Shown here: positions 5,736-26,248 of the stretch, piece by piece | Layout: each line of letters opens with the position of its first letter | Numbering within the stretch: position 1 is the stretch's first letter | Source of the DNA: Thermodesulfobacteriota bacterium | GTDB lineage: Bacteria; Desulfobacterota; QYQD01 | Direction of reading: 5' to 3' | DNA length: 64,000 nt | Assembly (NCBI GenBank): GCA_040754095.1 | Contig: JBFMFO010000003.1 | Coordinates: 57,401 to 121,400 of the forward strand | Program-made: the position numbers and the translations under genes | Notes under the pieces: model-generated | Seen by the model: the letters and a program-made list of their open reading frames with translations, nothing else | What the model was told of the DNA's origin: nothing | Database searches by the model: none

Positions 5736-5749
5736 ACGGCACTATAAAT

Positions 5750-5830: not shown

Positions 5831-5867
5831 TTGAAAAGAGCTGGTCGTCCAGAAAACGGCGCCTCGA

Positions 5868-6120: not shown

Positions 6121-6210
6121 CGGGACCGCTGACAGGGCCCCCTTTTTCAAAGGGGGGAAATGTTTCTCCTCCCTTTGGAAAAGGGAGGTTGGGAGGGATT
6201 TTAAAATACT
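6121..6210. repeat. G5/C5-run palindromic elements (two adjacent copies)
   Basis: gggccccctttttcaaaggggggaaatg and ctcctccctttggaaaagggaggttgggaggg. Confidence 0.7.
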
Positions 6211-6253
6211 TCTTCAAATAGCTAAGCTGATACAATTGGTTAAAATTTAGCCA

Positions 6254-6336
6254 TGTAGGGTGGGCAAAGCCCACCCTACGGGACTTAAATCCCCCTCACC
6301 CCCCCTTTGGAAAAGGGGGGGTGAGGGGGATTTGGC
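6254..6336. repeat. GTAGGGTGGGCAAAGCCCACCCTAC palindrome followed by a G5/C5 palindrome (aaatccccctcaccccccctttggaaaagggggggtgagggggattt)
   Basis: Both are perfect inverted repeats read directly from the sequence. Confidence 0.8.
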
Positions 6337-6411
6337 AAGTTTATATGTTTAATTGCCGGAGTAATAGTAGGATAGTCCCGCACGATGGGTTTTACCCGCT
6401 ATCCTTCTCTC

Positions 6412-6436
6412 GGTGGGCAAAGCCCACCCTACGTGA
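6412..6436. repeat. GGTGGGCAAAGCCCACCCTAC palindrome copy
   Basis: Same core as 5666-5735 and 6254-6282. Confidence 0.7.
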
Positions 6437-6626
6437 CTACCCATCATTCCATTATTCCACCATCCATTTATCTATAGGTATTCAAAGAGCCAAGATGTTA
6501 CTTTCGACCAACATGCACAACAAGAAGTCGTATTATTCGTTTTTTTCTTAATGTTTTTTTGGGTGTGCCGATAAGGAAGGAACGAAGGCGTATCGCAAAT
6601 CATACTCTTCAAGAGGAGGTAAGAAG

Positions 6627-10689: not shown

Positions 10690-10850
10690 ATAGCTGTCAG
10701 CTATCAGCAGTCAGCGGTCAGCATGAAGTCGGTCCACCGTTCACTGTTGACCGTTTACCGAAAGAAAATGTCGGACAACGGTTAACGGATAACAGATAAC
10801 AAACATGCTGATAGCTGAACGCTGATAGCTAAAATGGGGAGGGATCAACA
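10690..10850. repeat. Mosaic intergenic repeat, reverse-complement copy of 19840-19990
   Basis: ctgtcagctatcagcagtcagcggtcagcatg ... ccgtttaccgaaagaaaatgtcggacaacggttaacggataac ... gctgatagctgaacgctgatagc. Near-identical inverted copy at 19840-19990. Related copy at 38560-38680. Confidence 0.75.
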
Positions 10851-11188
10851 TGGCTTGCATGCTTAGCGACGTTGACGGAAAGCCGGTGTTAAAGCTGACG
10901 GGTGCAGTCGGTATCGCCGAAGGCGCGGAATTAAAAGGGGCCCTGCTGAGGCTTATTGAATCTACAGAAAATCCTACGGTAGCCATGGATGGAGTTACAG
11001 AGGTCGATGTCTGCACTTTGCAACTTCTATTTGCAACTCAAAAGAGCGCCGCCAAAGCCGGTAAGTCGCTTAATTTGGCGGACATCCCCGAGCCGTTTAA
11101 TCAGGCAGCAGAATTGGCAGGAATGGCTGACCTCTTTGGGCTTAAAATTCGAAATCCGAAGCACGAAATTCGAGACAATACCAAATGA
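10850..11188 (+). CDS. STAS-domain protein (anti-sigma-factor-antagonist-like) in the che cluster
   Basis: RBS GGGGAGGG. Reads KLTGAVGIAEGAELKGALLRL ... VDVCTLQLLFATQKSAAKAGKSL, a STAS/SpoIIAA-like fold signature. The 3' end and stop codon lie inside a MITE terminal repeat, so the C-terminus is uncertain. Confidence 0.65.
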   Translation: MACMLSDVDGKPVLKLTGAVGIAEGAELKGALLRLIESTENPTVAMDGVTEVDVCTLQLLFATQKSAAKAGKSLNLADIPEPFNQAAELAGMADLFGLKIRNPKHEIRDNTK

Positions 11189-11420
11189 CCAAAATTCTAA
11201 GCAATTATGAGGCTCTTGCAAAAGTCGTCACTCCGGTGAAAACCGGAGTCCAGATGGTTTGCAACTGTTTGAAAAGACTGGATTCCGGCTTTCGCCGGAA
11301 TGACAACAATTCGATCGTAAGAGTTTTGCAATAGCCACTTATGTTTTGGTCATTTGAGCATTTTGATTTCGGATTTGTTTCGGATTTGGGATTTCGAATT
11401 TCGGATTTAAACGTGGCGCT
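11130..11420. repeat. Diverged copy of the ~300 bp MITE (TIRs cgaaattcgagacaataccaaatgaccaaaat / ttttggtcatttgagcattttgatttcggatttgtttcggattt)
   Basis: Same termini and same internal hairpin (ccggctttcgccggaatgac) as the copies at 16790-17125 and 18750-19085. Confidence 0.65.
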
Positions 11421-11496
11421 CGGTAATCTCAGTTCGGCGCATAAGTGCTAACGGTGTTTTGGCAGTGGATTTAGGTAAAAACTGGGGGGGTAATTT

Positions 11497-11862
11497 ATGG
11501 CTAAGACAATTATGACCGCCGACGATTCAGCCAGCGTCCGGCAGATGGTAAGTTTCACCCTTAAACAGGCCGGTTACGAGGTCATCGAAGCGGCGGACGG
11601 TAAAGATGCCCTGACCAAGTTGAACGGCACGCAGATAGACATGCTGATTACCGACCTCAATATGCCCAACCTGGATGGGATCAGCCTGATCAAGGGTGTG
11701 CGCGGGATGCCTAACCATAAGTTCATCCCGATCATTATGCTGACTACAGAGTCTCAGGAGAGCAAGAAGGCTGAAGGCAGAACAGCCGGGGCCTCCGGAT
11801 GGATCGTTAAGCCGTTTAAGCCGGATCAGCTCCTGGCGGTGGTTAAAAAAGTATTAAGATAA
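11497..11862 (+). CDS. cheY: Chemotaxis response regulator CheY
   Basis: 121-aa single REC domain (ADDSASVR ... DMLITDLNMPNLDGISLI ... KPF). Confidence 0.9.
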   Translation: MAKTIMTADDSASVRQMVSFTLKQAGYEVIEAADGKDALTKLNGTQIDMLITDLNMPNLDGISLIKGVRGMPNHKFIPIIMLTTESQESKKAEGRTAGASGWIVKPFKPDQLLAVVKKVLR

Positions 11863-11922
11863 GCGGGTAAAATCAAAGCTCAAAGTTCAAAGGCCAAATG
11901 AATGACAAATGTCAAAGCTCAA

Positions 11923-12066
11923 ATGACAAATGAAATTCAAAGTTCAAATGAGCAAAAGCTCTATGATCTTGAGGAGCGAACAGCCCAGTTTGGAGAAAAT
12001 GTCATTGATTTCGTCAAAACACTGCCACAGGACTCGATTAACAGGGAATTGTGCGGGTATAAGTAG
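11923..12066 (+). pseudogene. Truncated N-terminal fragment of a four-helix-bundle (23S rRNA IVS-type) protein gene
   Basis: Reads MTNEIQSSNEQKLYDLEERTAQFGENVIDFVKTLPQDSINRELCGYK*. The YDLEERT.QFGE.VI.F.K.LP motif is recognised from memory of that family. The fragment stops at the hairpin preceding the GIY-YIG gene. Confidence 0.35.
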
Positions 12067-12095
12067 TCCGTCATTCCCGCGAAAGCGGGAATCCA
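12066..12095. repeat. REP-like hairpin GTCATTCCCGCGAAAGCGGGAATCCAG (5' flank of GIY-YIG gene)
   Basis: Perfect 9-bp stem. Almost the same hairpin (gtcattccggcgaaagccggaatccag) sits inside the MITE copies at 16907-16933, 18875-18901 and 19705-19731. Confidence 0.75.
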
Positions 12096-12107
12096 GAAAA
12101 AAGAAGC

Positions 12108-12425
12108 ATGAAAAACTTCTTCGTTTATATCCTTTGCAGTAAACGGAATGGCACTTTGTATACCGGCGTGACGTCGAACTTAATCAAACGGGTATATGAA
12201 CATAAGAGTGATTTAGTTGATGGGTTTACAAAGAAATATAATGTCCACTGTCTGGTTTGGTATGAAATGCATGAGACAGCTGAGGCAGCTATTACCAGAG
12301 AGAAACAAATAAAGAAATGGAATCGCAAGTGGAAACTAAAACTTATCGAGGAGTATAACCCTGAATGGGATGATTTATATAAAGCTCTTTGTGAAGAGAC
12401 TGGATTCCCGTTTTCACGGGAATGA
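12108..12425 (+). CDS. GIY-YIG nuclease superfamily protein (small UPF0213/YhbQ-like)
   Basis: 105 aa. Reads FFVYILCSKRNGTLYTGVTSNLIKRVYEH ... with a conserved downstream E (YEMHETAEAAITREKQIKKWNRKWK). The final codons and the stop lie inside a second hairpin. Confidence 0.75.
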   Translation: MKNFFVYILCSKRNGTLYTGVTSNLIKRVYEHKSDLVDGFTKKYNVHCLVWYEMHETAEAAITREKQIKKWNRKWKLKLIEEYNPEWDDLYKALCEETGFPFSRE

Positions 12426-12428
12426 CGA
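12400..12428. repeat. REP-like hairpin CTGGATTCCCGTTTTCACGGGAATGAC (3' flank of GIY-YIG gene)
   Basis: Reverse complement of the 5' flank hairpin motif. Confidence 0.7.
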
Positions 12429-12511
12429 CTTGTTACGAACCCATCAACTTTGGATTTTGACATTTGAACTTATGAAGGCGGGATGGCATGAGGTTACCCG
12501 AAATATGAGCT

Positions 12512-14638
12512 ATGGAGGTATTAGCCGTGAACCCCGAAGATAAACACGCCCAGACCTATTTGGAAGAAGCCAGGGAGCTGCTGGCCGAACTGGAAGAGGC
12601 CGTGCTTGAGTTGGAAAACAACATGTCCGACATGGAGCTTGTGAACCGTATTTTTCGAGCCATGCATACAATTAAAGGTTCCGGGGCCATGTTCGGTTTT
12701 GACGCCGTGGCCGGGTTTACCCACCACGTGGAGACCGTCCTGGATCAGGCGCGAAACGGCGTCATCCCGGTTACGAATGACCTCACCGGCCTGATTCTGG
12801 CGGCGCGGGATGAGATCTCATCCATGCTGTTCGGCGCATCTGAGGCGGATTCGGGCGGCCGTGAGGAAATTATCGCCGCATTGCGTTCGCTTTTACCCGG
12901 AGAGGCAAATGAGGGAGAGGCGACAGGCCCAGAGACGAACGAGGCAGTCCCTGATTCGGGGGCCGAAGTTCAACCGGAAAGCAGCAGGGGCATGAGAGCT
13001 ACATACCGTATCCGTTTTATTCCTGGAAGCGATACGCTTCGCTATGGGAACGACCCTATCGCCTTGCTTAACGAACTGGACAACCTCGGAGAGCTGCGGG
13101 TCACCGCTCTTTCCGATCGCATCCCCTGCCTGGAAGAAATCAATTATGATGATTGTTATCTCGGATGGGACGTGACTCTTATATCTGAGGCCGATATCAA
13201 CGCGATCCGCGATGTCTTTATATTTGTGGAAGACAGCAGTGAGGTGACCATTGAAAAGATAGCAAATGCGAATACGATTGGCGATGCGGCAACTGAAAAG
13301 ATTGGTCAGATACTGGTTGCTCGTGGAGATGTCCCTGCCGAAGCGGTGGAAAGGGCCGCAAAGGATCAAAAAAAGATCGGGGAGATACTGGTCGAGACCG
13401 GTACGGTGTCTAAGGAAAAGGTTAATTCAGCCCTGGTCGAACAGCATATTATCCGGCAGCAGGCGGAAAAGCATAGCGCCAGCAGCATCCGCGTGGCCGC
13501 CGAAAAGCTTGACCAGCTCATTAATATAGTGGGTGAGTTGGTCACTACGCAGGCCCAACTCACTCAAGCGGCCGGTTCTAACGGGAACTCGGAACTGCTG
13601 ACGGCTGTAGAGAGTGTCGAGCGTCTTACCGGCGAACTGCGCGATTGTGTCCTGGGAGTGCGTATGCTGCCCATTGGCTCCACTTTTGCCAAGTTTAAAA
13701 GATTGGTGCGCGACCTTTCCGTGGCGCTGGGCAAGGAAGTTGATTTTATCACAGAGGGAGACGAGACAGAACTCGATAAAACGGTTATCGAGAAGATCGG
13801 CGATCCCCTGGTTCATCTTATCCGGAATAGCTTAGACCACGGTATTGAGACCCCGGAGAAAAGAGAGGCCACCGGCAAGCCGCGTCGCGGCATAATTCGT
13901 TTGACGGCGGCGCACGCCGGAGGAGAGGTGGTTATATCGGTTGAGGACGACGGCAAGGGGCTTGATACGGAGGCCATCGTCCGTAAGGCCATGGAAAAAG
14001 GGCTGATCGATGACGCGAAGAGCCTCTCCGATTCCCAGATATTTAATCTCATTTTCCAGCCGGGGTTTTCCACCGCTGAAACGGTCACAGATGTCTCAGG
14101 CCGCGGGGTAGGCATGGACGTGGTAAGACGGGAGATAGAGGCCCTGCGGGGTTCGTTTGATATTCAGAGTAAAAAGGGGCGAGGCACCACGGTTACGGTC
14201 AGACTGCCCCTGACCCTGGCCATAATCGACGGCCTCCTGGTGGAGTCAGGCCGGGAGCGGTTTGTGATTCCGCTGCATCATGTGCAGGAGTGTGTGGAAT
14301 TGACCGGGCGTGATATTGATAATACCCACGGACGCCATGTGATGAATGTCCGGGACAGGCTTGTTCCTTATGTCCGCTTAAGTGAATTCTTTGTTACGGC
14401 GGATAGAGAAGCGCTATCTATAGAACAGGTCATCGTGGTGCAGGCCGAGGATTTCGTTACAGGCCTGGTTGTGGACAGGATTGTGGGTGAGAAGCAGGCG
14501 GTGATTAAACCTCTGGGCAAGATGTTCAGGCAAGCCGACGGCGTATCCGGGGCTACTATACTGGGTGACGGCACGGTGGCCTTGATTTTGGACGTACCCC
14601 AGATCACACGGTGCGCACAGCGTGAGGAGGCGGCATGA
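12512..14638 (+). CDS. cheA: Chemotaxis histidine kinase CheA
   Basis: HPt motif RAMHTIKGSGAMFGF. HATPase motifs (HLIRNSLDHGIE, VEDDGKGLD, GRGVGMDVV). C-terminal CheW-like domain. The start may instead be the GTG at 12527 (RBS GGAGG). Confidence 0.9.
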   Translation: MEVLAVNPEDKHAQTYLEEARELLAELEEAVLELENNMSDMELVNRIFRAMHTIKGSGAMFGFDAVAGFTHHVETVLDQARNGVIPVTNDLTGLILAARDEISSMLFGASEADSGGREEIIAALRSLLPGEANEGEATGPETNEAVPDSGAEVQPESSRGMRATYRIRFIPGSDTLRYGNDPIALLNELDNLGELRVTALSDRIPCLEEINYDDCYLGWDVTLISEADINAIRDVFIFVEDSSEVTIEKIANANTIGDAATEKIGQILVARGDVPAEAVERAAKDQKKIGEILVETGTVSKEKVNSALVEQHIIRQQAEKHSASSIRVAAEKLDQLINIVGELVTTQAQLTQAAGSNGNSELLTAVESVERLTGELRDCVLGVRMLPIGSTFAKFKRLVRDLSVALGKEVDFITEGDETELDKTVIEKIGDPLVHLIRNSLDHGIETPEKREATGKPRRGIIRLTAAHAGGEVVISVEDDGKGLDTEAIVRKAMEKGLIDDAKSLSDSQIFNLIFQPGFSTAETVTDVSGRGVGMDVVRREIEALRGSFDIQSKKGRGTTVTVRLPLTLAIIDGLLVESGRERFVIPLHHVQECVELTGRDIDNTHGRHVMNVRDRLVPYVRLSEFFVTADREALSIEQVIVVQAEDFVTGLVVDRIVGEKQAVIKPLGKMFRQADGVSGATILGDGTVALILDVPQITRCAQREEAA

Positions 14639-14664
14639 GTTCACCGCAGAGGACGGGAAGAAAG

Positions 14665-14775
14665 CTGAAGGCTCAAAGCTCAAAGCTCAAAGCTCAAAGC
14701 TGATGGCTGATAGCTCATAGTTCATGGCTCAAGGCTGAAGGTAATGACCAGTGACCAATGACTAATGACCGATTT
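14665..14775. repeat. Mosaic repeat with a 4x GCTCAAA microsatellite plus a gctgatggctgatagctcatag ... aatgaccagtgaccaatgactaatgacc motif
   Basis: Read directly from the sequence. Motifs are shared with many other intergenic sites. Confidence 0.6.
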
Positions 14776-14803
14776 GCGGTGAGAAATACAAGGAGGTAGA
14801 AAA

Positions 14804-16618
14804 ATGAAAGTCAGGATAGGTACAAAACTGGCCGTTGGTTTTGTCATCCCCTTGCTTTCTATGCTGATCATCGGGGGATGGGCCTATTTTGCCAATCGGG
14901 ATGTAGAATCAAGGTCGAGCTTGACAAAGGACGAGAGCATCGTCTTTCACGAGACCGCCCAGCAGATGAAGGTGGACGTTATACAGGTACAACAGTGGCT
15001 ATCGGATATCTCGGCCACGCGGGCGCAGGACGGCCTGAATGATGGTTTTGATAAGGCAGAGGAGCACAGACGATCTTTTTTGGCCGGGCTGAATAAGTTC
15101 AGGGAGATGTTCACCGAGGAAAACAACCAGGAGGGATTGGAACACCTGAAGAAATTGGAAGCAGAATTTAACGCATATCATGCCACCGGGAAAAAGATGG
15201 CCCAGGCTTACATAGAGCACGGGCCGGCCGGCGGAAACAAGCTGATGGCCGAGTTTGATGAGGCAGCAGAGGCCCTGTGGCGCAATCTCAATCCATTGGT
15301 GGAATCACAGACCAAAGAAGTGCATGAGAGTATGGAGGCCATTGTTACCTCGATCAAACGTGTCAATATGGGCGTTATCGTCATCTTGTCTTTAGCCGTT
15401 TTAATAACTGCTGTTGTAGGCATACTTATCGCTCGTCGTATTGTCAGACCAGTCAACCAGCTTCGTGACGTTGCTGATAAACTGGCGGCAGGAGATACCT
15501 CGGTAGAAATCGATATCAAGAGCCGGGATGAGACCGGCGACCTGGCCGCATCATTTAAGAAGATGGTGGCGCAACTGAACGGCCTGCTTGCCGAGATAGA
15601 CCTGCTCACCAGGTCTGCGGTGGAAGGAAAACTCGATACCCGCGGCGATACCGGGAAATTTGGCGGTGATTATGGAAAGATTATCCACGGCATAAACGAT
15701 ACCCTCGATGCTGTAACCGGCCCTCTGAAGACTTCAGCCGAATACGTCCGGCAGATCAGCAGAGGCGACCTCCCGGCAAAGCTTACAGACGACTACAAAG
15801 GCGATTTTAACGAGATCAAGAACAGCCTGAACAGCATGATCGATAATCTTACCGGTTTTGCCGTCAATGTACGGACAGTGGCCGGGCAGGTGGCTGCAGG
15901 CAGCGAGGAGCTTAATGCTGCTGCCACGCAGATGTCCCAGGGCACGTCCGAACAGGCGGCAAGCATCGAGGAGGTATCCAGTTCCATGGAGGAGATGAAT
16001 GCCGCAGTAGTGCAGAATGCGGATAACGCCAAGCAGACGGCGGTTATTGCAAAAGATGCGGCTCAAAATGCCAGGGAGAGTGGTGATGCAGTGGTGCAGG
16101 CGGTAGGGGCCATGAACCAGATCGCGGAAAAAATAACTATTATTGAAGAGATTGCCAGACAGACCAACCTCCTGGCCTTGAATGCGGCCATTGAGGCGGC
16201 CCGGGCCGGAGAGCATGGACGGGGCTTTGCGGTGGTGGCGGCAGAGGTGCGGAAGCTGGCCGAACGCAGCCAGACTGCGGCCCAGGAGATTGCCGATTTA
16301 TCGGGGAGCAGCGTCGAGGTGGCCGAAAGTGCCGGCCGTATGGTAGCTGAACTGGTTCCCAATATACAGAAGACCGCCGATCTCGTTCAGGAGATCAGCG
16401 CTTCCAGCGGAGAGCAGGCCCGGGGGATAGAACAGGTCACCCAGGCCATTGAACAGCTTAATCAGGTGGTGCAGCAGAATACCGGTAGCGCAGAGGAGGT
16501 GGCCATTCCTCCGAAGAGCTTTCCGCTCAGGCAGAACAATTGCTTAATGCGGCAGAGTTTTTCAAGACTGGCGAGGGCGCCCGGCAGACAGCGGCGCATG
16601 CCGGGATCAGGCGCGTAA
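14804..16618 (+). CDS. Transmembrane methyl-accepting chemotaxis protein (2 TM, periplasmic helical sensor, tandem HAMP, MCP domain) with an apparent frameshift at the 3' end
   Basis: RBS AAGGAGG. TM1 [18 protein letters not shown]2 [23 protein letters not shown] tip motif [37 protein letters not shown]. After about 16510 the reading frame yields nonsense ([15 protein letters not shown]), while the -1 frame continues as a normal MCP tail to the DFERF terminus at 16797. Confidence 0.8.
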
Positions 16619-16789
16619 AACGCCCAACGGCTCCTTCCTCCGCGATGCAGTTGAGTCCGGCCGCCGCACCTGTAACACAGAGACATGAGAAAAAAGTTGA
16701 TAGTTCAACCGGGGATAAGCTTGGGCAGGCAGGATCGAGAGCGGTGGATTTAATCCTGGAGCCGGATAATGATGGGCAGGATTTTGAAA

Positions 16790-17125
16790 GGTTTTGAGGC
16801 GGCTATTCACCGCAAGGGCGGACAAATTCTAAATTCGAAGCACGAAATACGAAACAAATTTAAATGACCAAAATTGATGGTCTCGTAAAAAGTCTGAAAA
16901 GACTATTTTCTGTCATTCCGGCGAAAGCCGGAATCCAGCAAATTCAATATGTTCTGGATGCCGGATCAAGTCCGGCATGACGATTTCAGGACTTTTTACG
17001 AATTCATCAAAATTCAAAATCCTAAACAATTATGTTTTGGTCATTTGGACATTTTGATTTCGGATTTGTTTCGGATTTCGATATTAGGATTTCGGATTTA
17101 TAGCTTTGCGTCTTTGCGGTGAGCC
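16790..17125. repeat. MITE-like element (~300 bp) with ~45-bp imperfect TIRs and two internal hairpins. Copy 1.
   Basis: About 97% identical to 18750-19085. TIRs cgaaatacgaaacaaatttaaatgaccaaaat / ttttggtcatttggacattttgatttcggatttgtttcggattt. Internal hairpins gtcattccggcgaaagccggaatccag and gccggatcaagtccggc. Confidence 0.8.
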
Positions 17126-17149
17126 TAAGAAATACAAGGAGGTAGAAAG

Positions 17150-18757
17150 ATGAAAGTATCAGTAGGACCAAAGCTTATCGGGGCGTTTGTTTTTCTTGTA
17201 ATCGCCCTGGGTGTGGTCAGCTACACCGGCATCAGGCAGATGGAGGCCATAGACGGGCATCTGATGAACATCTCGGATGTTATTATGAAGCGCGCCATCG
17301 TAGCTAAAGAACTACAACTGCATCTTGCCAATACCGGCTGGGGGGTTATGGAGTTCCTGACCGCGGAGACTACGGCCGAGCGGGATGAGTTGGCCGGCAC
17401 AATCAAGAAGGAGATGGCCGAGGTCAGCGAGCATATGGGCGAGTTGGACGGGATTGCCTCTGCCGAGGTCAAGACACATCTGGCAGAATTTCGTAATTCC
17501 TTTGGTGCGGTGGAAAAGATTATTAACCAGATATTAACCCAGGGCCGGGGCGGCATAAACAAAGAAGTCCAGATGCTCGATACCCAGTTGGATGCGGTTA
17601 TTGATAAAACCATAGCCGGGACAGAGAAGATCGTGGCCGTGGTGGACAGGGAGGTGGAGGCGGCCAAGCTGGCGTCGGATAAAGACGTGGAGTATGGCCG
17701 GAACCTGCTGATGGCAGTGGCCGGGGCAGCCCTGGTGGTGGCCGTGATTATAAACATCTTTATCATTCTCGGCATAAGAAGCTTCAGGCGGACGGCATTG
17801 AGCATAGGGGAAGCGGTAGAAAACGTGGCAGCGGGCGCGGAACAGCTTTCCGCTACGGCCCAGGGGCTTTCACAGGGGGCCACAGAACAGGCGGCGAGCA
17901 TCGAGGAGGTATCCAGCTCCATGGAGGAGATGAATGCGTCTATCTCACAGAATGCGGACAGCGCCGGCCAGACTGCGGCTATGGCTACCAAGGCGGCCGG
18001 CAACGCCAGCGAAGGCGGTCAGGCGGTGACCCAGGCGGTCGGCGCCATGAAGCAGATTGCCGAGAAGACGAGCGTAATCGAAGAGATCTCTCGCCAGACC
18101 AATTTACTGGCCCTGAATGCCGCTATCGAGGCGGCCCGGGCCGGTGAACATGGAAAGGGCTTTGCAGTGGTCGCTTCCGAGGTGAGGAAGCTGGCGGAAC
18201 GGAGCCAGATCGCGGCCCAGGAGATTGCCAACCTTTTAGGCGGCAGCCTCCAGGTGGCCGAACATGCCGGCAAGCTGGTGGAAGAGTTGGTCCCCGCTAT
18301 CCAGAAGACCTCTGAACTTGTTCAGGAGATCAATGCGGCCAGCCGGGAGCAGGCCAGCGGTATCGGCCAGGTCACCCAGGCCATCCAGCAGCTCGACCAG
18401 GTGGTGCAGGCAAACGCAGCCGCCTCTGAAGAACTGGCCTCCACCAGTGAAGAGACGTCCTCGCAGGTGGTTGAGATGCAGCGTAACGTGGATATGTTTA
18501 TCGAGCGGCTGGGAGGACGAAAGAGAGTCAATAAGAAGAACTCGGCGCGAAAAACGAACTCCGGGAACTTCATCGGCCTTACCGGCAAGCTCAAGGGAAA
18601 ACCCAGTACAGAATCGGTTAAGGACTTAACCGTCGCCTCGGTCGTAGATGCGCCGGGGCGTGCGGAAGGGGGCCAGACGGCCGCGAGGAGCCAGGATGCT
18701 GTAGGTGTTATTCTTGATCTGGATAAGCAGAACGACCAGAATTTCGAAAGATTTTGA
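17150..18757 (+). CDS. Transmembrane methyl-accepting chemotaxis protein (2 TM, ~150-aa periplasmic domain, MCP signalling domain, no clear HAMP)
   Basis: RBS AAGGAGG. TM1 [17 protein letters not shown]2 [27 protein letters not shown] tip motif [38 protein letters not shown]-terminal tail NDQNFERF. Confidence 0.9.
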
Positions 18758-19085
18758 GGCGGATATTCACCGCAAGGGCGGACAAATTCTAAATTCGAAG
18801 CACGAAATACGAAACAAATTTAAATGACCAAAATTGATGGTCTCGTAAAAAGTCTGAAAAGACTATTTTCTGTCATTCCGGCGAAAGCCGGAATCCAGCA
18901 AATTCAATATGTTCTGGATGCCGGATCAAGTCCGGCATGACGATTTCAGGACTTTTTACGAATTCATCAAAATTCAAAATTCTAAACAATTACGCCTTGG
19001 TCATTTGAGCATTATGATTTCGGATTTGTTTCGGATTTCGATATTAGGATTTCGGATTTATAGCTTTGCGTCTCTGTCGAAGATC
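18750..19085. repeat. MITE-like element, copy 2
   Basis: Near-identical to 16790-17125, including the last codons of the upstream MCP gene. Confidence 0.8.
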
Positions 19086-19135
19086 CGCCGGTATTTAGGA
19101 GGGCGGTGAGACAATAAATCAAAGGAGATAGAACT

Positions 19136-19672
19136 ATGGACGAGATCAGGCAGTACCTTACCTTTGTTTTGAACAGAGAAGATTTTGCCCTGGAGACCTC
19201 GAGGGTAAAAGAGGTGCTGGAGTACACAACCGTTACCCGGATACCGCGCATGCCGGATTTTCTCTGCGGCGTGATAAACTTAAGGGGCAACGTAGTCCCG
19301 GTTATGGATATGCGGTTAAAACTGGGGATGCCGGCGGCAGAGCGAACCGTCGATACCTGTATTGTGATTGTAGAAGTGGAGCTTGATGGGGAGACAGTCA
19401 CGATAGGATGTCTTGTGGATTCAGTCAAAGAAGTCCTGGAGATACCAGCCGGTGAGATCGAACCGGCGCCCAAGATGGGGATGCGCCTCAGGGCTGACTT
19501 TATCCAGGGCATGGCCAGGCAGAACGAAGGCTTTATTATCATTCTGGATATCAACCGCATCCTTTCCATCGATGAAATAACGCTCATGTCCGCCGCCGCC
19601 GGACCGGCGATTGAGACGGATGTAGCCGTTCAAAAGACATCTGGTGATGTCCAGGCAATGTCATTGACTTAA
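19136..19672 (+). CDS. cheW: Chemotaxis coupling protein CheW
   Basis: RBS AAGGAG. CheW-like domain (YLTFVLNREDFALETSRVKEVLE ... GVINLRGNVVPVMDMR ... IVIVEV). About 20-aa C-terminal extension. Confidence 0.9.
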   Translation: MDEIRQYLTFVLNREDFALETSRVKEVLEYTTVTRIPRMPDFLCGVINLRGNVVPVMDMRLKLGMPAAERTVDTCIVIVEVELDGETVTIGCLVDSVKEVLEIPAGEIEPAPKMGMRLRADFIQGMARQNEGFIIILDINRILSIDEITLMSAAAGPAIETDVAVQKTSGDVQAMSLT

Positions 19673-19839
19673 GGTTTCATCTGCTGATGCAGAATCAAAG
19701 GACGTCATTCCGGCGAAAGCCGGAATCCAGTCTTTTCAAGATGTTCTGGACACCGGCTTTCGCCGGTGTGACGGTGAGGATCAACCGGATTATTCTTAAG
19801 TCAACGACATTGGATGTTCAGGCGGAGATGGTGGGTTAG

Positions 19840-19990
19840 GAAGCTATCAGCACTCAGCGTTCAGCGGTCAGCATGTTTGTTATCCGTTATCCGTTAACCG
19901 TTGTCCGACATTTTTTTCGGTAAACGGTCAACAGTGAACGGTGGACCGGCTTCATACTGATAGTTGAACGCTGATAGCCGAAAATAGACA
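19840..19990. repeat. Mosaic intergenic repeat (inverted copy of 10690-10850)
   Basis: gctatcagcactcagcgttcagcggtcagcatgtttgttatccgtta ... ccgttgtccgacattttt ... ggtaaacggtcaacagtgaacggtggaccggc ... ctgatagttgaacgctgatagc. Confidence 0.75.
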
Positions 19991-19996
19991 AAAATT

Positions 19997-20878
19997 ATGG
20001 CGGACATAAGCCCCGGCTTAAATACGAATATCCCCATTTTTAATCCCCCTGACATGTCTGACCAGGAGTTTGCCCTGTTCAGCGATCTTGTCTATCGCCA
20101 TGCCGGGATAACCCTTCCCCCTGCTAAAAGGAACATGCTTGTTTCACGGCTGCTAAAACGCCTCAGGGCCCTTGGGATGCGTTCTTTTTTAGATTATTAC
20201 AATTACATAACCAGCCCGGCGGGCCGTCAGGCCGAATTCCCACATACTATCGATATGGTCAGCACTAACAAGACCGAGTTTTTCCGGGAGGCAGGCCATT
20301 TTAAGTTCTTAAAAGAGGCGGTCTTGCCGGAGTTGGCGGCCCGGGTACGCCGTCAGGGTAAGGGGAAAATCACGGCCTGGAGCGCAGGTTGTTCCTCGGG
20401 AGAAGAACCTTATACCTTAACTATGGTCATGATAGAGTATCTTAAGGTTTGTGGGGGCGGTGAGTTTTCTATCCTGGCTACGGATATATCACATCGCATG
20501 TTGGATAAAGGCCGGCGCGCAGTTTATTCAGAGGTCGATATCCAGAGTGTCCCCCCTGATTACCTTCGGAAATATTTCATGCGAGGAATAAAGGGACAGG
20601 AAGGTTATTATCGTGTGGCGCCGGAGTTGCGTAACCGCGTGAAATTTCAGCATTATAATTTTATGGACGACTCCGTCCCTTTCCACGGGTCTATGGATTT
20701 TATCTTTTGCCGCAATGTCATGATATATTTCGACCAGGGGACCAGAACCATGTTGGTCAAGAAGTTTTATAAGCATCTCGTTGACGGAGGGTATCTGTTC
20801 ATCGGCCACTCGGAGACCCTGCACGGGATGGAAACGGATTTTAAACTGGCCAGCCCCACGGTTTACAGGAAGATGTAA
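19997..20878 (+). CDS. cheR: Chemotaxis protein methyltransferase CheR
   Basis: N-terminal helical domain (FALFSDLVYRHAGITL). SAM-binding motif (AWSAGCSSGEEPYTLTM). About 293 aa. Confidence 0.9.
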   Translation: MADISPGLNTNIPIFNPPDMSDQEFALFSDLVYRHAGITLPPAKRNMLVSRLLKRLRALGMRSFLDYYNYITSPAGRQAEFPHTIDMVSTNKTEFFREAGHFKFLKEAVLPELAARVRRQGKGKITAWSAGCSSGEEPYTLTMVMIEYLKVCGGGEFSILATDISHRMLDKGRRAVYSEVDIQSVPPDYLRKYFMRGIKGQEGYYRVAPELRNRVKFQHYNFMDDSVPFHGSMDFIFCRNVMIYFDQGTRTMLVKKFYKHLVDGGYLFIGHSETLHGMETDFKLASPTVYRKM

Positions 20879-20882
20879 AGAA

Positions 20883-21060
20883 GTTCGGAATATCACGCAA
20901 GGCCGCCAAGACCGCGAAGGAAAAAAGAAAATCTGGAAATCAAGTCGTGCCATAGGCAGATTCGCCGAGGCGAAAAATCAAGAATAGAACAATATTTTTC
21001 TTCATGAGTTCATGAGTTCCAAATTATATTCTTTTTGCGTCCTTTGTGCCTTGGCGTGAG
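20883..21060. repeat. ~170-bp MITE-like element with TIRs tcacgcaaggccgccaagaccgcgaagg / cctttgtgccttggcgtgaga
   Basis: Inverted, partly deleted copy at 31425-31580. Partial copy at 24736-24800. Confidence 0.7.
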
Positions 21061-21133
21061 AAATTGAGTTTTTATGGGGCCGTCAGCTTTAACATTCGAA
21101 ATTTCCATCTTTCGATAGTTTTCGGATGAAAAC

Positions 21134-24094
21134 TTGATAGCCCGGGGACAAGGGATGGCAGATTTTTTAAAAGACCAGATGGACTATGTCCTATTCTTCT
21201 ACGGGCTGTCGTTCGCCCTGCTGGCCATAGTGTGCTGGTTCCTGAGCCGGAGGAGATACGGTCACTTGCCGTGGCGATGGCTGGGGCTGTTTGCCGCTGC
21301 CTACGGCGTCAGCAACTGGCTGTGTATGGCGGCCATGAGCACCGGGCATGACGTGTTTTTCGTAGCGCGGCTCGGCCTTATGATCCTGGCCTTTGCATTC
21401 CTTGTGGAGTTTGGCCGGGCCGGCATGGCGGCTCTCAGGGGGCGGGCGCCGGGCCGGTGGGTTTTTATCCCGTTATTGTGTCTGGCTGCCCTGGGCGGCT
21501 TGGCCGGGCTAAGAGGACTTCTCTCTTCTACCCGCTACACCTTGGGACTGGCGGGCGGGTTATGGGCGGCATGGGTCCTGTTTCAGGCCTCAAAGGCCCG
21601 GGGTATGAAAGGCCGCCCTTTGGCGGTTGCCGCTCTGGCCATGGCCGGTTGCGGCCTGACCATAGGCACGGTGGTGGAAGGCGCTTCCTTTTTCCCTGCC
21701 TCGGCGCTTAACCGGGAGACATTTCTAGCGGTTGCGGGTGTCCCGATCCAATTGATCCGGGGTATTCTGGCCATTATCGTTGCTATTGCCGTAGCAGCCC
21801 ATTTTCGGATCTTCTGTCGCTATGATGCGGACGGGGATGACTGTAAGTGGAGATCCTGTTACATGCCGCGGATGGGGCTCGCCCTGTTTTTTGTCTTGGC
21901 CGGCGGGTGGGCACTTACGGAAGCGGTGGGCAGATATGCAGAGGGAGACCTACGTTTTCATCTGCTTAGCCGCGTCAAGACCATAGCCGACACCGTGGAC
22001 CTTGGTCATGTAACGAGACTGACGGGCACACCGGCCGACATCGGCACGCCGGACTACAATTGCCTGAAGGGGCGGCTTATTAATGTCAGGGCCGCCAATC
22101 CGGACTGCCGGTTTGTTTATTTAATGGCCAGGAGGGACGGCAAGGTTATTTTCCTCGCAGACTCCGAACCGGAGGGATCCCGGGACTGTTCGCCGCCGGG
22201 CCAGCTCTACGGGGAGGCCAGTCCTGAACTACTGGGTTTTTTTACATCCGGCAAGCCGTTTGTAGAGGGACCGCTTACCGACCGATGGGGAGACTGGGTC
22301 TCTGGTTTTTCCCCGGTCCGTGACCCCCGGACCGGGCGGGTATTGGCGGCCGTGGGTATAGACATTGACGCCGGGGATTGGCAGCAAAAAATCATGACCC
22401 ATCGCCTGGCGCCTATAATTATCACCATGCTGGCGGCCGTACTTCTCCTCGGTTTCTTCGTGAGCCGGGAAAGGATGCTGGCAGCCAAACAACAGGCCGA
22501 GGTGGCCAACCGGGCTAAAAGTGAATTTCTAGCTATGATGAGCCATGAAATCCGTACCCCCATGAACGGGGTGCTGGGCATGCTTGATCTGGCGCTCGAT
22601 GGCGAGATGCCTTTGCGGCAACGGGAATACCTTACTATGGCAAGATCGGCGGCCGATTCCCTGCATAGTCTGCTTAACGACATCCTGGATTTTTCCAGGA
22701 TCGAGGCGGGGAAACTGGTTATGGAAGAGACGGACTTCAGCCTCCGTTCGGTTATCAACTCGGTGGTTGACCTCCTGAGATTGCCGGCGCAGGGAAGAGG
22801 CCTGGCGATCCGGCGGGATATTCCTGACGCCGTTCCCGATGCCCTGTCCGGAGACGCGGGCCGCTTGAGACAGATATTGCTTAATCTCATAGGAAACGCC
22901 GTCAAGTTTACCAAAAGCGGATATGTACTGATTAGCGCCGGGGTGGAGGAAAGGACTGGGTCGGGTATGTTGCTCCATTTCTCGGTAAAAGATACCGGGA
23001 TCGGAATTCCCAGAGATAAACTCGAAACTATTTTTGATGCCTTTATCCAGGGCGAGGCCTCGAACAACCGCCGGTATGGAGGGGTGGGGCTTGGGTTAAG
23101 CATATCGAGACGGCTTGTGGAGATGATGGGCGGCAGTATCTGGGTGGAAAGCGAGGAAGGCAGGGGAAGCATATTCCATTTTACGGTCAGGTTTGGTCTG
23201 CCGCGGGGGCTTCCGGAAAGAGAGTCTCAGTCCTCTGACCACTTGAGTGAAGCAAGAGAAGGGACAGCGGCGACGCCACATACCCTGTCCAAGACTAATT
23301 TCAGGGTCCTGTTGGCTGAGGATGACCTTATCAACCAGGAGGTAGCAAGGGGCATCCTCCTGAAACATGGCCATATGCCAACGGTCGTCTCGGACGGTAA
23401 AGCGGCCGTAGAGACATGGGGGAAAGGGAATTTTGACCTCATCTTTATGGACATCCAGATGCCGGTTATGGACGGGTTTGAGGCCACGCGCCTGATACGG
23501 GAGAAAGAAAAGGCGACGGGAGCGCATATTCCCATTATTGCCATGACTGCCTCCGCCCTGAAGGGTGACCGGGAAAGGTGTCTGGAGGCGGGTATGGACG
23601 GTTATATCTCCAAGCCGGTCAAGGCGGCGGAGCTTTTACAACTGATAGAGGCCACCGTGGTGAATAAGACGGCGAAAGATAGGGAAAACAGTTATTTTAC
23701 GCCATCTGTTGATTTTGCAGCCGGGAATCCGCCGGCAGAGAGCAAGGCGCTCGATGTATCAGGCGCGCTGGATAACCTCGGGGGTGACGTGAACCTTCTA
23801 AAGGAGGTTACGAACCTGTTTTTGGAGAAGGTTCCGTTTGAGATTCAGGGATTGGGAGGGGCGATCTCCTCCGGAGATGAGCGGCTCATAGAGCGCCATG
23901 CGCATAAGATAAAAGGAATGGCCGCCAACATCGGGGCAAAAAGGATTGCCGACAGCGCCTTTCGCATCGAACTGGCGATCAGAAAGGATGATATCTCCGG
24001 GTGTGGCGCATTGTTTGAAAGGATGGGAGAAGAATTAGAGGCATTTAAGAAGTCGGCGGGTGAGGCCGATTGGAATAATATGGGAGGGGAATGA
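21134..24094 (+). CDS. Hybrid sensor histidine kinase: multi-pass TM N-terminus, extracytoplasmic sensor domain, HisKA, HATPase_c, REC, C-terminal HPt
   Basis: About 6 N-terminal TM helices, a ~190-aa hydrophilic segment and another TM. H-box MSHEIRTPMNGVLGML. N/G boxes (LLNLIGNAVKFT, DTGIGI, GGVGLGLSI). REC (VLLAEDDLINQ ... DLIFMDIQMPVMDGFEA ... SKP). HPt (HKIKGMAANIGAKRI). The start may be the ATG at 21155. Confidence 0.85.
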   Translation: MIARGQGMADFLKDQMDYVLFFYGLSFALLAIVCWFLSRRRYGHLPWRWLGLFAAAYGVSNWLCMAAMSTGHDVFFVARLGLMILAFAFLVEFGRAGMAALRGRAPGRWVFIPLLCLAALGGLAGLRGLLSSTRYTLGLAGGLWAAWVLFQASKARGMKGRPLAVAALAMAGCGLTIGTVVEGASFFPASALNRETFLAVAGVPIQLIRGILAIIVAIAVAAHFRIFCRYDADGDDCKWRSCYMPRMGLALFFVLAGGWALTEAVGRYAEGDLRFHLLSRVKTIADTVDLGHVTRLTGTPADIGTPDYNCLKGRLINVRAANPDCRFVYLMARRDGKVIFLADSEPEGSRDCSPPGQLYGEASPELLGFFTSGKPFVEGPLTDRWGDWVSGFSPVRDPRTGRVLAAVGIDIDAGDWQQKIMTHRLAPIIITMLAAVLLLGFFVSRERMLAAKQQAEVANRAKSEFLAMMSHEIRTPMNGVLGMLDLALDGEMPLRQREYLTMARSAADSLHSLLNDILDFSRIEAGKLVMEETDFSLRSVINSVVDLLRLPAQGRGLAIRRDIPDAVPDALSGDAGRLRQILLNLIGNAVKFTKSGYVLISAGVEERTGSGMLLHFSVKDTGIGIPRDKLETIFDAFIQGEASNNRRYGGVGLGLSISRRLVEMMGGSIWVESEEGRGSIFHFTVRFGLPRGLPERESQSSDHLSEAREGTAATPHTLSKTNFRVLLAEDDLINQEVARGILLKHGHMPTVVSDGKAAVETWGKGNFDLIFMDIQMPVMDGFEATRLIREKEKATGAHIPIIAMTASALKGDRERCLEAGMDGYISKPVKAAELLQLIEATVVNKTAKDRENSYFTPSVDFAAGNPPAESKALDVSGALDNLGGDVNLLKEVTNLFLEKVPFEIQGLGGAISSGDERLIERHAHKIKGMAANIGAKRIADSAFRIELAIRKDDISGCGALFERMGEELEAFKKSAGEADWNNMGGE

Positions 24095-24149
24095 CAAATG
24101 TCAAATGGCAAAGCTCAAATGAAGCCCAAATGACTAAAACAGATGTCAT

Positions 24150-24285
24150 TAGTCAATAGTCATTTGTCATTACTTAAAGAAGTTGCAAGTTGCAAAAGTT
24201 ACAAGTTACAAATCGGTAACTTCTGTAACCTGTAACTATTTTATAAACAATGACTAATGACCAGTGACGAGTGAGGTTTTGCGCT
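24150..24285. repeat. TGACTAATGACCAGTGAC-family inverted-repeat element with internal gttgcaagttgcaaaagttacaagttacaa direct repeats
   Basis: gtcattagtcaatagtcatttgtcat ... caatgactaatgaccagtgacgagtgagg. Confidence 0.7.
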
Positions 24286-24320
24286 TTGTCATTTGAACTT
24301 TACAACAAGGGGGTTTATCA

Positions 24321-24722
24321 ATGAGGACATTGATTGTAGAGGACGATTTTATCGCCCGGCGGATTTTAAGGGATATCCTTTCACCTTATGGAGACTGTGA
24401 TATCGCTATTGACGGCGACGAGGCCATCCAGGCCTTCCGGCTGGCCTATGAGGACAGCAAACCCTACGATCTAATCTGTATGGACATAATGATGCCGGAT
24501 ATTGATGGGCAGGAGGCGCTCCGGCGGATCCGTGAAATAGAAAAGGACGCAGGTATAAGACCTTCGGAGGAAGTAAAGGTAATTATGACTACTGCACTCA
24601 GCGATCCAAAGAACGTCGTCGAGGCATTCTACAAAGGAGGTGCTACCTCATATATCGTAAAGCCCGTTAACAAACAAAAATTTCTGGAAGAGGTGCGGAA
24701 TCTGGGACTAATTGGCGGTTAG
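24321..24722 (+). CDS. Single-domain response regulator (CheY-like)
   Basis: REC motifs LIVEDDFIARR ... DLICMDIMMPDIDGQEAL ... VKP. 133 aa. Confidence 0.85.
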   Translation: MRTLIVEDDFIARRILRDILSPYGDCDIAIDGDEAIQAFRLAYEDSKPYDLICMDIMMPDIDGQEALRRIREIEKDAGIRPSEEVKVIMTTALSDPKNVVEAFYKGGATSYIVKPVNKQKFLEEVRNLGLIGG

Positions 24723-24818
24723 CGGGCTGAAAACAGAAGTCAATTTCTCACGCCAAGGCGCCAAGACCGCAAAGATGCAAGAAATCTGAAGCACGACCTT
24801 TGGCATTACAATATTAGA

Positions 24819-24888
24819 CGTAGGGTGGGCTTTGCCCACCATCATTGGCAGCGCAGCGTATTTTCGGTGGGCTGCGCCCACCCTGCAT
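24819..24888. repeat. Paired GTAGGGTGGGC...GCCCACC palindromes (inverted-orientation relative of 5666-5735)
   Basis: cgtagggtgggctttgcccacc ... cggtgggctgcgcccaccctgc. Confidence 0.7.
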
Positions 24889-24929
24889 GACTTTAACGAC
24901 ATGCAATATACAATAGATGCGGGGATAAC

Positions 24930-25994
24930 ATGAGCGAGAAAATCAAGGTGCTGGTTGTTGATGACTCTGCCGTGGTGCGGCAGACGCTTAACGAGATATT
25001 AAACTCTGATCCGGATATTGAGGTAATCGCTACAGCGCAGGACCCTTATGTGGCGGCGGAGCGTCTGAAAAAGGCTGTGCCGGATGTTATTACCCTGGAC
25101 GTAGAGATGCCGCGCATGGACGGCATCACCTTCCTGCGCAAGCTTATGGCCCAGCATCCCATCCCCGTGGTGATCTGCTCGACCCTGACTACACAGGGCG
25201 CCCGGACCACCCTCCAGGCCCTGGAATATGGCGCAGTGGAGATCATCGAGAAACCCAAGATGGGGACAAAGCAGTTTCTGGAGGAGTCCAGGATACGCAT
25301 CTGCGACGCTGTTAAGGCGGCGGCTCAGGTCACATTACGTCCCAGAAAAATCAGAAAAGTTGAAGAAAAACTGACGGCGGATGTAATCATGGCCAAACCA
25401 AAGACCAGGGCCATGGCCGAAACCACGGAGAAGGTAGTCCTGATCGGGGCTTCCACCGGCGGTACGGAGGCGTTAAGAGATTTCCTTGAGGCCCTGCCGC
25501 ACGATACCCCGGGCATAGTGATTGTCCAGCACATGCCTGAGAAATTTACCACCGCCTTTGCCGCGCGGCTGAACGGCCTTTGCCGGGTGGAGGTCAAAGA
25601 GGCTGAAAATGGTGATGGCGTGGTGACCGGACGGGCCTTGATAGCCCCCGGGAATAGGCATACCTTGCTCAAGCGGAGCGGCGCCCGGTATTATGTGGAG
25701 ATTAAGGACGGGCCTTTAGTCTCCCGTCATCGTCCGTCTGTGGATGTGCTCTTTCGCTCCGGCGCGCGCTATGCCGGGTCCAATGCGGTCGGCGTCATCA
25801 TGACCGGCATGGGCGACGACGGCGCTCAGGGGTTGCTGGAAATGAAGGAGGCCGGGGCCTTTACCATTGCCCAGGACGAGGCCACCTGTGTGGTTTTTGG
25901 CATGCCCAAGGAGGCCATAAAGCGTGGCGCCGTAGATAAAATATTGCCGCTGCCCGCTATTCCGCGAGAGGTTATCAAGATATGTTCGGAATGA
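24930..25994 (+). CDS. cheB: Chemotaxis response regulator protein-glutamate methylesterase CheB
   Basis: N-terminal REC ([13 protein letters not shown] ... [14 protein letters not shown]). C-terminal methylesterase catalytic-domain motifs ([12 protein letters not shown] ... VQHMP ... [10 protein letters not shown]). Confidence 0.9.
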
Positions 25995-26248
25995 AGGGCT
26001 GAAGGCTGAAAGCTCAAGGCTATAAAGGCTATAAGTGATGGGTTACGGGTTGTGGGTTACGGGGTTAAGCGGAGCATGATGTTAAGTAGTTGAGGGTTTT
26101 TTCACTACTCAACTACTTAACTGCTTAACCAGTATACCAATAACTGAACGCCGGATGCTGCGTTTTTTTGTTGTAACTTTTAGCCAATTCTTGCTACTAT
26201 GCAGGAAGTCTGAGAAATTAGAACGCAATCATAGGAGGGGGCGTGTTC

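Follow-up and report, generated by a model that had tools for sequence, protein, structure and literature searches.

Nested hairpin-forming repeats in the chemotaxis operon spacers of an uncultured Thermodesulfobacteriota bacterium

Introduction

Bacterial interspersed mosaic elements (BIMEs) of enterobacteria and Neisseria intergenic mosaic elements (NIMEs) are mosaic clusters of intergenic repeats, and enterobacterial repetitive intergenic consensus (ERIC) and Correia elements are transcribed palindromes. Here we describe a repeat that occupies spacers of the chemotaxis (che) operon of an uncultured Thermodesulfobacteriota bacterium, in a 64,000-nt stretch of DNA (contig JBFMFO010000003.1) to which we refer throughout as the window. 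A first-pass annotation had described this repeat as a single ~300-bp miniature inverted-repeat transposable element (MITE) placed directly after methyl-accepting chemotaxis protein (MCP) genes. The unit is a nested palindrome of four layers rather than a single MITE, and the explanation that we favor, with a probability of roughly 0.7, is that several independent families of hairpin-forming intergenic repeats, of the repetitive extragenic palindromic (REP)/BIME/NIME kind, lie nested in it as a mosaic.

Several described systems resemble individual layers of this repeat. The NTS/SRM hairpins are single-strand DNA sites of the Ssn GIY-YIG nucleases and occur in an NTS-ssnA-NTS arrangement (Chenal et al., 2025; PMC11893778). 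The cut made by SsnA falls about 3 nt 5' of the hairpin and is confined to single-stranded DNA, sparing RNA and duplex DNA; its catalytic residues Y6, Y17 and E64 have been mutated; Ssn genes encode a single GIY-YIG domain of about 94-105 aa and have the motif on either side; and mobility was raised only as a hypothesis (PMC11893778). The CGTC-1 REP family, which corresponds to dRS3 of Neisseria, includes dimers reported to be nested in palindromes (Di Nocera et al., 2013; PMC3733652). In Coxiella, the IVS (intervening sequence) combines terminal inverted repeats (TIRs), tandem heptamers upstream of S23p, excision by RNase III and a decaying open reading frame (ORF) (PMC4990558).

Throughout the text coordinates are positions in the window, and the copies of the repeat are named A (11143-11411), B (16798-17125) and C (18758-19085). 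Syntenic che operons were recovered from three relatives: L015 (GCA_049323255.1; 96-99% identical to the window over aligned stretches), L016 (GCA_031082315.1; about 89-94%) and L010 (hereafter MAG151; about 91%), of which L006 is another locus.

Anatomy of the repeat

Copies B and C (16777-17116 and 18737-19076) are 96.5% identical over 340 nt (blastn, E 5e-130), in line with the ~97% first reported, and the diverged copy that had been placed over the end of the STAS ORF is copy A (11145-11409; 67% over 283 nt, blastn), which holds the STAS stop codon in its left arm. What had been noted as a solo TIR at ~5750-5830 is a right arm without a left one, in reversed orientation (5746-5814; 95.7% over 69 nt, blastn). 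The imperfect TIRs claimed for the element are present in copy B (16824-16859 and 17064-17099; 36 nt, 78% complementary) and give it the inverted termini of a MITE, and the two internal hairpins exist as well; it is the union of these parts into a one-piece MITE that does not stand. A perfect 12-nt pair, AAATGACCAAAA/TTTTGGTCATTT, is also present in the outer arms, and an inner inverted pair (16874-16894 and 16990-17010) is 86% complementary. The whole unit folds as one long hairpin (RNA -111 kcal/mol, z -7.8 versus shuffles; DNA z -10.8). An independent public assembly of MCP-C is a 1710-nt contig with both ends inside the repeat, the kind of break that a multi-copy repeat causes in assembly.

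We read the layers from the outside in as follows (Table 1). Layer 0 is a short CACCGCAAAG-type palindrome; in copy B 16798-16823 is complementary to 17101-17125 (reverse complement GGCTCACCGCAAAGACGCAAAGCTA) and paired with it in the DNA fold, and outer arms of this kind also flank the element in L013, in L019 and in the MCP-C/CheW spacer of L016. Layer 1 is a ~150-nt imperfect palindrome with arms of ~8-nt arrays and no target-site duplication, resembling in architecture the stem of an S23p-type IVS minus the ORF; its left arm is common to copies A and B, the MAG151 copies and L019. Layer 2 is a ~130-nt unit with TIRs of its own (about 18-21 nt, 84-86% complementary) and 4-6-bp junction duplications, inserted in the apex of layer 1 at different points in A and in B/C. 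This unit is 100% identical in copies B and C, where it is flanked by direct AAAATT (16870-16875 and 17009-17014 in copy B), and it folds in copy B at -57 kcal/mol (z -8.4). Layer 2 of copy A is a different TIR unit (11209-11338) that lies 19 nt further right than in B/C, flanked by direct TTAT (11205-11208 and 11339-11342), and paralogues uninterrupted at its insertion point read CAATTATGTTTTGG (window 17027; L019). Layer 3 is the central inverted dimer of NTS/SRM hairpins, with a predicted nuclease gene 4.4 kb upstream; hairpin 2 of copy B has a longer loop that puts it outside the strict SRM pattern, forms in the folds, and has the head and tail (CGTCAT...CCAG) of the SRM matches.

Arm complementarity increases inward (78%, 86%, 100%), which would fit successive insertion into the apex of an older palindrome. 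In the model that we propose, new palindromes would insert where the apex of a resident one is single-stranded, and the layers would be older outward. Transcribed within the polycistronic che mRNA, the unit would form a long duplex, probably a site for RNase III or a block to exonucleases, a role that IVS and REP elements have been shown to play in other settings.

Independent presence of the layers and turnover at orthologous sites

The MCP-B/MCP-C spacer of MAG151 contains layers 0 and 1 only, and layer 2 is absent with clean junctions both at this orthologous site and in L019, the empty site reading GACCAAAATTCAAAAT in both. The MCP-C/CheW spacer of MAG151 and a third site have layer 1 around a different insert of ~300 nt with C5/G5 hairpins; the C5/G5 insert that follows the lone arm of the window sits between complete arms in MAG151. 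L015 has an identical copy A, whereas L016 lacks it. Sites B and C of L015 are occupied by a palindrome of TCAGCG/GTTATCCG arrays that runs from stop codon to RBS (ribosome-binding site), a family also present in the window (10699-10830, 19847-19981 and 38552-38673), and the palindromes that L016 has there are different again. Every variant at these spacers folds, with z between -4 and -10.

Layers 0 and 1 are also found downstream of unrelated genes in L013, L019 and L020, a further copy of the element likewise follows an unrelated gene in L006, and most long spacers of the window hold long palindromes of several families. The claimed placement after MCP genes therefore reflects no receptor specificity, as copies follow STAS and these unrelated genes too. 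The repeat is dispersed, modular and quickly replaced, and is not bound to receptor genes.

An exact 24-mer of the right arm, TGATTTCGGATTTGTTTCGGATTT, occurs in 13 loci (L002-L014) in a scan of a genome collection that did not return the source genome. These loci belong to metagenome-assembled genomes (MAGs) assigned to Desulfobacterota, CPR (candidate phyla radiation), Planctomycetota, Gemmataceae, Gammaproteobacteria and Alcaligenaceae (Proteobacteria), and a complementary A-rich arm lies near the 24-mer in most of those examined. Such cross-phylum arms could have spread horizontally, arisen by convergence or entered the MAGs through contaminated bins.

Signs of insertion at the inner unit

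The inner unit is bounded by junction repeats, TTAT/TTAT in copy A and AAAATT/AAAATT in copies B and C, with matching empty sites. In L006 a 132-nt unit of the copy A type lies within a GIY-YIG ORF, flanked by TAAC/TAAC, and its removal restores an ORF end of ...DLINNKNREWLDLYEGI; a toxin-like ORF of L013 is likewise split by an insert that carries a dimer. The search for target-site duplications that had been proposed thus has a divided outcome: the ~130-nt inner unit has junction repeats (TTAT, AAAATT, TAAC), whereas the outer ends share no direct repeat in copies A, B and C or in the copies of L006, L013, L019 and L020. Among the about 50 ORFs of the window Pfam recognizes only housekeeping and che genes and no transposase. 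Junction duplications, empty sites and insertions within ORFs are signs that the gene-less hairpin dimers may move.

The NTS/SRM core and a predicted GIY-YIG nuclease

The SRM pattern HGTCWYN(0-2)YYVSBRHN(0-5)WNVSBRGN(0-2)RNCYNB has 8 matches in the window against a mean of 0.18 in 50 dinucleotide shuffles, and 12069-12096 is an exact Neisseria NTS (CGTCATTCCCGCGAAAGCGGGAATCCAG, 0 mismatches). The hairpins have a CGTC or TGTC head, an 8-bp stem that begins with A-T pairs, a 4-nt (GAAA) loop and a 3-nt tail. Their stem is 100% paired in nine variants and 4 of its 8 pairs change on both sides, a covariation score reached by 0 of 500 shuffles, and slid controls are 18-49% paired. Inverted dimers lie at 11226/11278, 16911/16954, 18871/18914 and 19703/19746.

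Inverted hairpins also flank ORF 12108-12425, which encodes a single GIY-YIG domain (Pfam E 4.4e-17) and whose Y7, Y18 and E65 line up with Y6, Y17 and E64, the catalytic residues of SsnA. The inverted SRM at its 3' end (12400-12427) overlaps its final codons and is followed at 12427-12447 by GACTTGTTACGAACCCATCAA, which resembles the right TIR of the B/C inner unit. The same NTS-ssnA-NTS arrangement is found in L022 and L025 (Nitrospirae and another community). The ORF has thousands of homologues, and the top matches, drawn from several phyla, share 70-85% identity with it. Of the 120 closest (P0121-P0240), about half end in ...GFP[LPF]xRE, residues encoded by the 3' hairpin, so that the repeat would supply the last ~9 codons of the GIY-YIG ORF across phyla. 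Two homologues that lie on many contigs had seemed to be multi-copy, a reading that we rejected since they are the same locus from different samples. A PDB sequence search with the GIY-YIG ORF gave only weak UPF0213 matches, and NCBIfam gave nothing significant for this ORF or for a 47-aa fragment. The center of the supposed MITE accordingly has the appearance of a gene-less version of the NTS-ssnA-NTS cassette.

As in the described Ssn/NTS system (PMC11893778), the locus combines SRM-pattern hairpins, an exact NTS, a ~100-aa GIY-YIG gene between inverted hairpins and a covarying stem. It differs in its host, an uncultured member of the Thermodesulfobacteriota, and in its additional gene-less inverted dimers inside a ~130-nt unit with TIRs and junction duplications of its own, a unit that relatives also have within ORFs. 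It shares with CGTC-1 (PMC3733652) the head, stem, loop and tail, the mostly inverted dimers, the intragenic copies and, as reported for H. neapolitanus, the nesting of dimers in longer palindromes; no dedicated enzyme was found in that study, and here the outer palindromes have several layers and far greater length. The REPIN-RAYT system likewise has an inverted REP doublet that forms a larger hairpin and a cognate gene flanked by hairpins (Bertels and Rainey, 2011; PMC3116915), but here the gene encodes a predicted GIY-YIG nuclease rather than a Y1 (IS200-like) transposase and the head is CGTC rather than GTAG. No RAYT (Y1, IS200-like) gene is present in the window.

An Rfam scan of the whole window gave nothing at gathering thresholds. 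At relaxed settings only 11208-11323, the dimer of copy A, matched Wolbachia sRNA 46 (29.8 bits against a gathering threshold of 65.3; E 0.0085), probably since Wolbachia carries the same class of hairpin.

Table 1. Positions of the repeat layers, related elements and receptor genes in the window.
Feature	Coordinates	Strand	Remarks
Lone right arm	5746-5814	-	followed by second-kind insert fragments 5815-5916 and 6136-6248 with C5/G5 hairpins
MCP-A, third receptor	6627-8624		ends EFERI; no element downstream
Copy A, between STAS and CheY	11143-11411	+	array arms 11143-11208 and 11339-11411
Copy A, SRM hairpin	11226-11253	+	
Copy A, SRM hairpin	11278-11305	-	
CAAATGAC/CAAAG ~8-nt arrays	11868-11945	+	overlap truncated PF05635 ORF 11902-12066
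NTS-ssnA-NTS cassette	12069-12427	+	NTS 12069-12096 (+), GIY-YIG ORF 12108-12425, SRM 12400-12427 (-)
Complementary array of CAAATGAC	12448-12472		
MCP-B	14804-16797	+	tail frame ends ...DNDGQDFERF
Copy B, layer 0 left arm	16798-16823	+	GGCGGCTATTCACCGCAAGGGCGGAC; begins right after stop codon 16795-16797
Copy B, layer 1 left arm	16824-16875	+	A-rich, ~8-nt arrays AAATTCTA AATTCGAA GCACGAAA TACGAAAC ... AAATGACCAAAATT
Copy B, layer 2	16876-17008	+	inner ~133-nt unit; ends GATGGTCTCGTAAAAAGTC and (reverse complement) GATGAATTCGTAAAAAGTC
Copy B, layer 3 hairpin 1	16911-16938	+	SRM/NTS type, TGTCATTCCGGCGAAAGCCGGAATCCAG
Copy B, layer 3 hairpin 2	16954-16982	-	inverted; reverse complement CGTCATGCCGGACTTGATCCGGCATCCAG
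Copy B, layer 1 right arm	17009-17100	+	T-rich (...TTTTGGTCATTTGGACATTTTGATTTCGGATTTGTTTCGGATTTCGATATTAGGATTTCGGATTTA), ~8-nt arrays
Copy B, layer 0 right arm	17101-17125	+	TAGCTTTGCGTCTTTGCGGTGAGCC; then RBS and MCP-C start at 17150
MCP-C	17150-18757	+	ends ...QNDQNFERF
Copy C	18758-19085	+	layers of copy B shifted by +1960
Copy C, outer left arm	18758-18783		
Copy C, left array arm	18784-18835		
Copy C, inner unit	18836-18968		
Copy C, SRM hairpin	18871-18898		
Copy C, second hairpin	18914-18942		
Copy C, right arm	18969-19060		degenerate outer right arm to ~19085
Free-standing inverted SRM dimer	19703-19773	+	CheW/CheR spacer

Array arms and the S23p connection

Arrays of the ~8-nt kind also accompany genes of the PF05635 family. 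ORF 11902-12066, which CAAATGAC/CAAAG arrays overlap, is truncated at 54 aa and belongs to this four-helix-bundle family of 23S rRNA IVS proteins, as do homologues P0242 and P0245; the ssnA cassette sits directly downstream of it and before the complementary array. The CheY/CheA spacer of L015 and L016 has an intact PF05635 gene between inverted TCAGC arrays, and L035 and L038 have two more PF05635 genes between complementary arrays, so that about four independent loci carry the link to S23p. A crude motif scan found no PF05635 gene beside the cross-phylum arm matches. A likeness seen by eye between the right arm of layer 1 and the sequence after the PF05635 stop codon of L038 found no support in blastn-short, and we do not rely on it.

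The PF05635 genes of L035 (1501-1880) and L038 (1501-1856) are broken at the same point, between ...ADGAESK and KDF..., one by a run-of-A frameshift and the other by an in-frame TAA, and the six database homologues of the PF05635 fragment of the window are all short (54-72 aa). These short or broken genes suggest recurrent decay, or possibly recoding.

The PF05635 loci of L015, L016, L035, L038 and the window may share with S23p-type IVSs a long TIR stem, tandem 7-8-nt repeats in the loop just upstream of the PF05635 ORF and decay of that ORF. The differences are that the elements occupy mRNA spacers rather than 23S rRNA and that copies A, B and C have the arms but lack an ORF. The Rfam scan found no rRNA in the window, and the elements lie between protein genes rather than in helix 25 or 45 of 23S rRNA. 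Tentatively, then, layer 1 and the other palindromes with ~8-nt arrays might be ORF-less miniatures of PF05635/S23p cassettes, that is, IVS-type selfish elements in mRNA spacers. They might have spread across phyla and replace one another in cassette fashion between stop codon and RBS, even between genomes 96-99% identical over aligned stretches, and their apex might serve as a landing pad for Ssn-associated dimers. The array loci speak for this reading without establishing it, and we regard it as less likely than not.

Weighing the explanations

The nested mosaic draws on what is observed directly: the anatomy of the unit, the independent presence or absence of its layers at orthologous sites, the junction duplications, and the SRM match with its covariation. 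As in BIMEs and NIMEs, several palindromic families form mosaics that fill spacers within and between operons and vary between close strains, and long and short forms differ through internal insertions; the sequence families are different ones. Strict concentric nesting and arms of ~8-nt arrays are not, to our knowledge, features of BIME, NIME, ERIC or Correia elements. The SRM/CGTC-1 class of the core and the REP/BIME/NIME-like mosaic are already known kinds; the lineage is new, and the repeat adds useful evidence of mobility and rapid turnover.

Several points weigh against this explanation. The DNA considered is 64 kb of the source genome plus a few relatives, and a scan of public metagenome data with a 30-nt right-arm pattern gave only 2 more copies or loci. 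No empty spacer was seen for layers 0 and 1, each orthologous spacer holding some palindrome, so that insertion of the arms is deduced from their dispersal. The AAAATT repeat of copies B and C could partly belong to the TIRs rather than be a duplication. Ssn cannot by itself account for the TIRs and duplications, because its published cut site falls elsewhere than at the unit's ends; some further activity, or template switching, would be needed.

How copies B and C came to be so alike is a separate matter. Rather than by two transpositions, they may have been homogenized by copying between the two neighboring spacers or by import of a whole MCP-B..CheW segment, which to us is about an even bet and is compatible with the nested mosaic. 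The window, MAG151 and L015 each have a single family at both sites, though not the same one in the window as in L015; of the 8 differences between B and C in 16798-17113, 1 lies in the left 211 nt and 7 in the right arm; two right-arm alleles occupy swapped positions in the window and MAG151; and identity to L015 is 95.9-96.5% from MCP-B downstream (14785-27249) but 97.4-99.3% upstream of MCP-B. It is harder to reconcile with the flanks, since the homologous stretches able to prime conversion are short or diverged, and with L016, which has different elements at the two sites.

Conserved function rather than conserved sequence is a weaker possibility, and one that we would not adopt at present: each che-operon spacer might need a long mRNA hairpin, to stabilize segments of the message, to let RNase III process it or to insulate translation, and it might not matter which family of palindrome provides it. 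At the same spacers each of the four related genomes has a palindrome that spans the stretch between stop codon and RBS and folds strongly, though the sequences are unrelated; repeats of this kind are present in most of the window's che-operon spacers that were examined, and IVS stems are RNase III substrates (PMC4990558). The same repeats also occur, however, in the divergent promoter region (5664-6530) and within ORFs of relatives, which looks selfish; promoter and terminator consensus sites are not enriched in a scan of 10800-20100, and no Rfam family reaches threshold.

A one-piece MITE of ~300 bp, moved in trans by a DDE transposase and inserted independently after each receptor gene, is improbable. 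Although its imperfect TIRs, its several copies in the window and relatives, and the far greater likeness of these copies than of the neighboring genes are what such an element would predict, the outer ends have no direct duplication in any of the copies compared, and no transposase gene accompanies them in the window. Whether the inner 130 nt are there, missing or replaced does not depend on the arms, and the B/C identity extends past the arms into a further palindrome layer. We therefore reject the MITE in favor of nested modules that come and go independently at orthologous sites. A single tandem duplication of a receptor gene with its flank, which the first-pass annotation had itself raised as the competing account of the two loci, is very improbable, and as the sole explanation of B and C is refuted: MCP-B and MCP-C are tandem paralogues and share the RBS region (75%) and the downstream unit, but their coding DNA is 72-81% identical (aligned signaling-domain stretches) against 96.5-97.5% for the flank, both already existed when the lineage separated from L015, L016 and MAG151, in whose spacers other elements are found, and copies lie at unrelated loci.

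Receptor tails and the STAS ORF

The copies had been thought to begin within the last MCP codons and to supply a C-terminal FERF. The last 21 coding bases of MCP-B and MCP-C differ at 3 positions and the next 316 bases at 8, so that near-identity sets in at the stop codon, and the similarity of the last 21 coding bases is only conservation of the F-E-R-F codons. A comparison of MCP 3' ends in relatives, as had been suggested, finds that the orthologues of L015 and L016 keep FERF before unrelated downstream DNA; MCP-A, for its part, ends in EFERI with no element behind it, and swapping of C-terminal tails through the repeat is thereby refuted. FERF terminates 30 of the 120 best MCP-C homologues and aromatic-x-x-aromatic 96 of them, and the sequences compared identify FERF as the receptors' own conserved C-terminal motif. 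The NWETF-type C-terminal pentapeptide of chemoreceptors is a tether for CheR and CheB, and by analogy the FERF-type tail is probably such a tether. DFERF, NFERF and EFERI share with that pentapeptide the position at the extreme C-terminus after a low-complexity linker, the aromatic-x-x-aromatic form and the family-wide occurrence, and they differ in being F-E-R/K-F/Y rather than W-x-x-F.

The only ORF here that truly ends inside the repeat is STAS (10850-11188), with its stop codon (11186-11188) in the left arm of copy A; its L016 orthologue has 101 aa rather than 112, a difference of 11, and the two part immediately behind GGGCTTAA. MCP-B is frameshifted by a 1-nt deletion near 16506 (GGCCA-TTCC versus GGCCAGTTCC in L015), and its orthologues P0114 and P0118 are intact with 664 aa; the frameshift is either that of a pseudogene or an assembly error. 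MCP-A contains a 360-bp internal tandem duplication, 94% identical, of a PAS-domain segment (6732-7031 versus 7092-7391), and its L016 orthologue is 126 aa shorter. Between CheR and CheB, a hybrid histidine kinase and the next response regulator (21134-24722) are present in L015 and absent in L016 (15725-15964).

Other repeats of the window

The divergent promoter region upstream of MCP-A (5664-6530, ~870 bp) is a repeat mosaic of the lone arm, C5/G5 hairpins and GTAG palindromes, and stands where L015 (1859-1949) and L016 have about 95 nt. GTAG-tagged palindromes (CGTAGGGTGGGCWAAGCCCACC...) lie at 5666-5732, 6256-6285 and 6410-6440; the GTAG-tagged REP class is usually tied to RAYT transposases. 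A family of CCCCCTTTGAAAAAGGGGG-type hairpins occurs at 3837-3891, 5868-5911, 6140-6202 and 6286-6333 and in L010, L013 and L006, and is tandemly amplified, in 4-5 units, within the MAG151 inserts. At 31391-31775 the order of layers is reversed, with inverted repeats of the ATTGATGA.CTCGTAAAAAG type enclosing a palindrome of the CACGCAAAG type, which indicates that modules nest in either order; a second ATTGATGA.CTCGTAAAAAG-type pair there encloses unrelated hairpins.

Implications

These comparisons remove the idea of a MITE that donates or swaps receptor tails. They would extend the partnership of Ssn nucleases and their hairpins to the Thermodesulfobacteriota and add to the Ssn picture sequence-level signs that gene-less dimers may move, and they offer a testable link between array palindromes and S23p/IVS elements. 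For annotation, such repeats break assemblies and create spurious ORF ends in MAGs. Finally, the four related genomes form a natural series on how fast the spacers of an operon refill with different palindromes.

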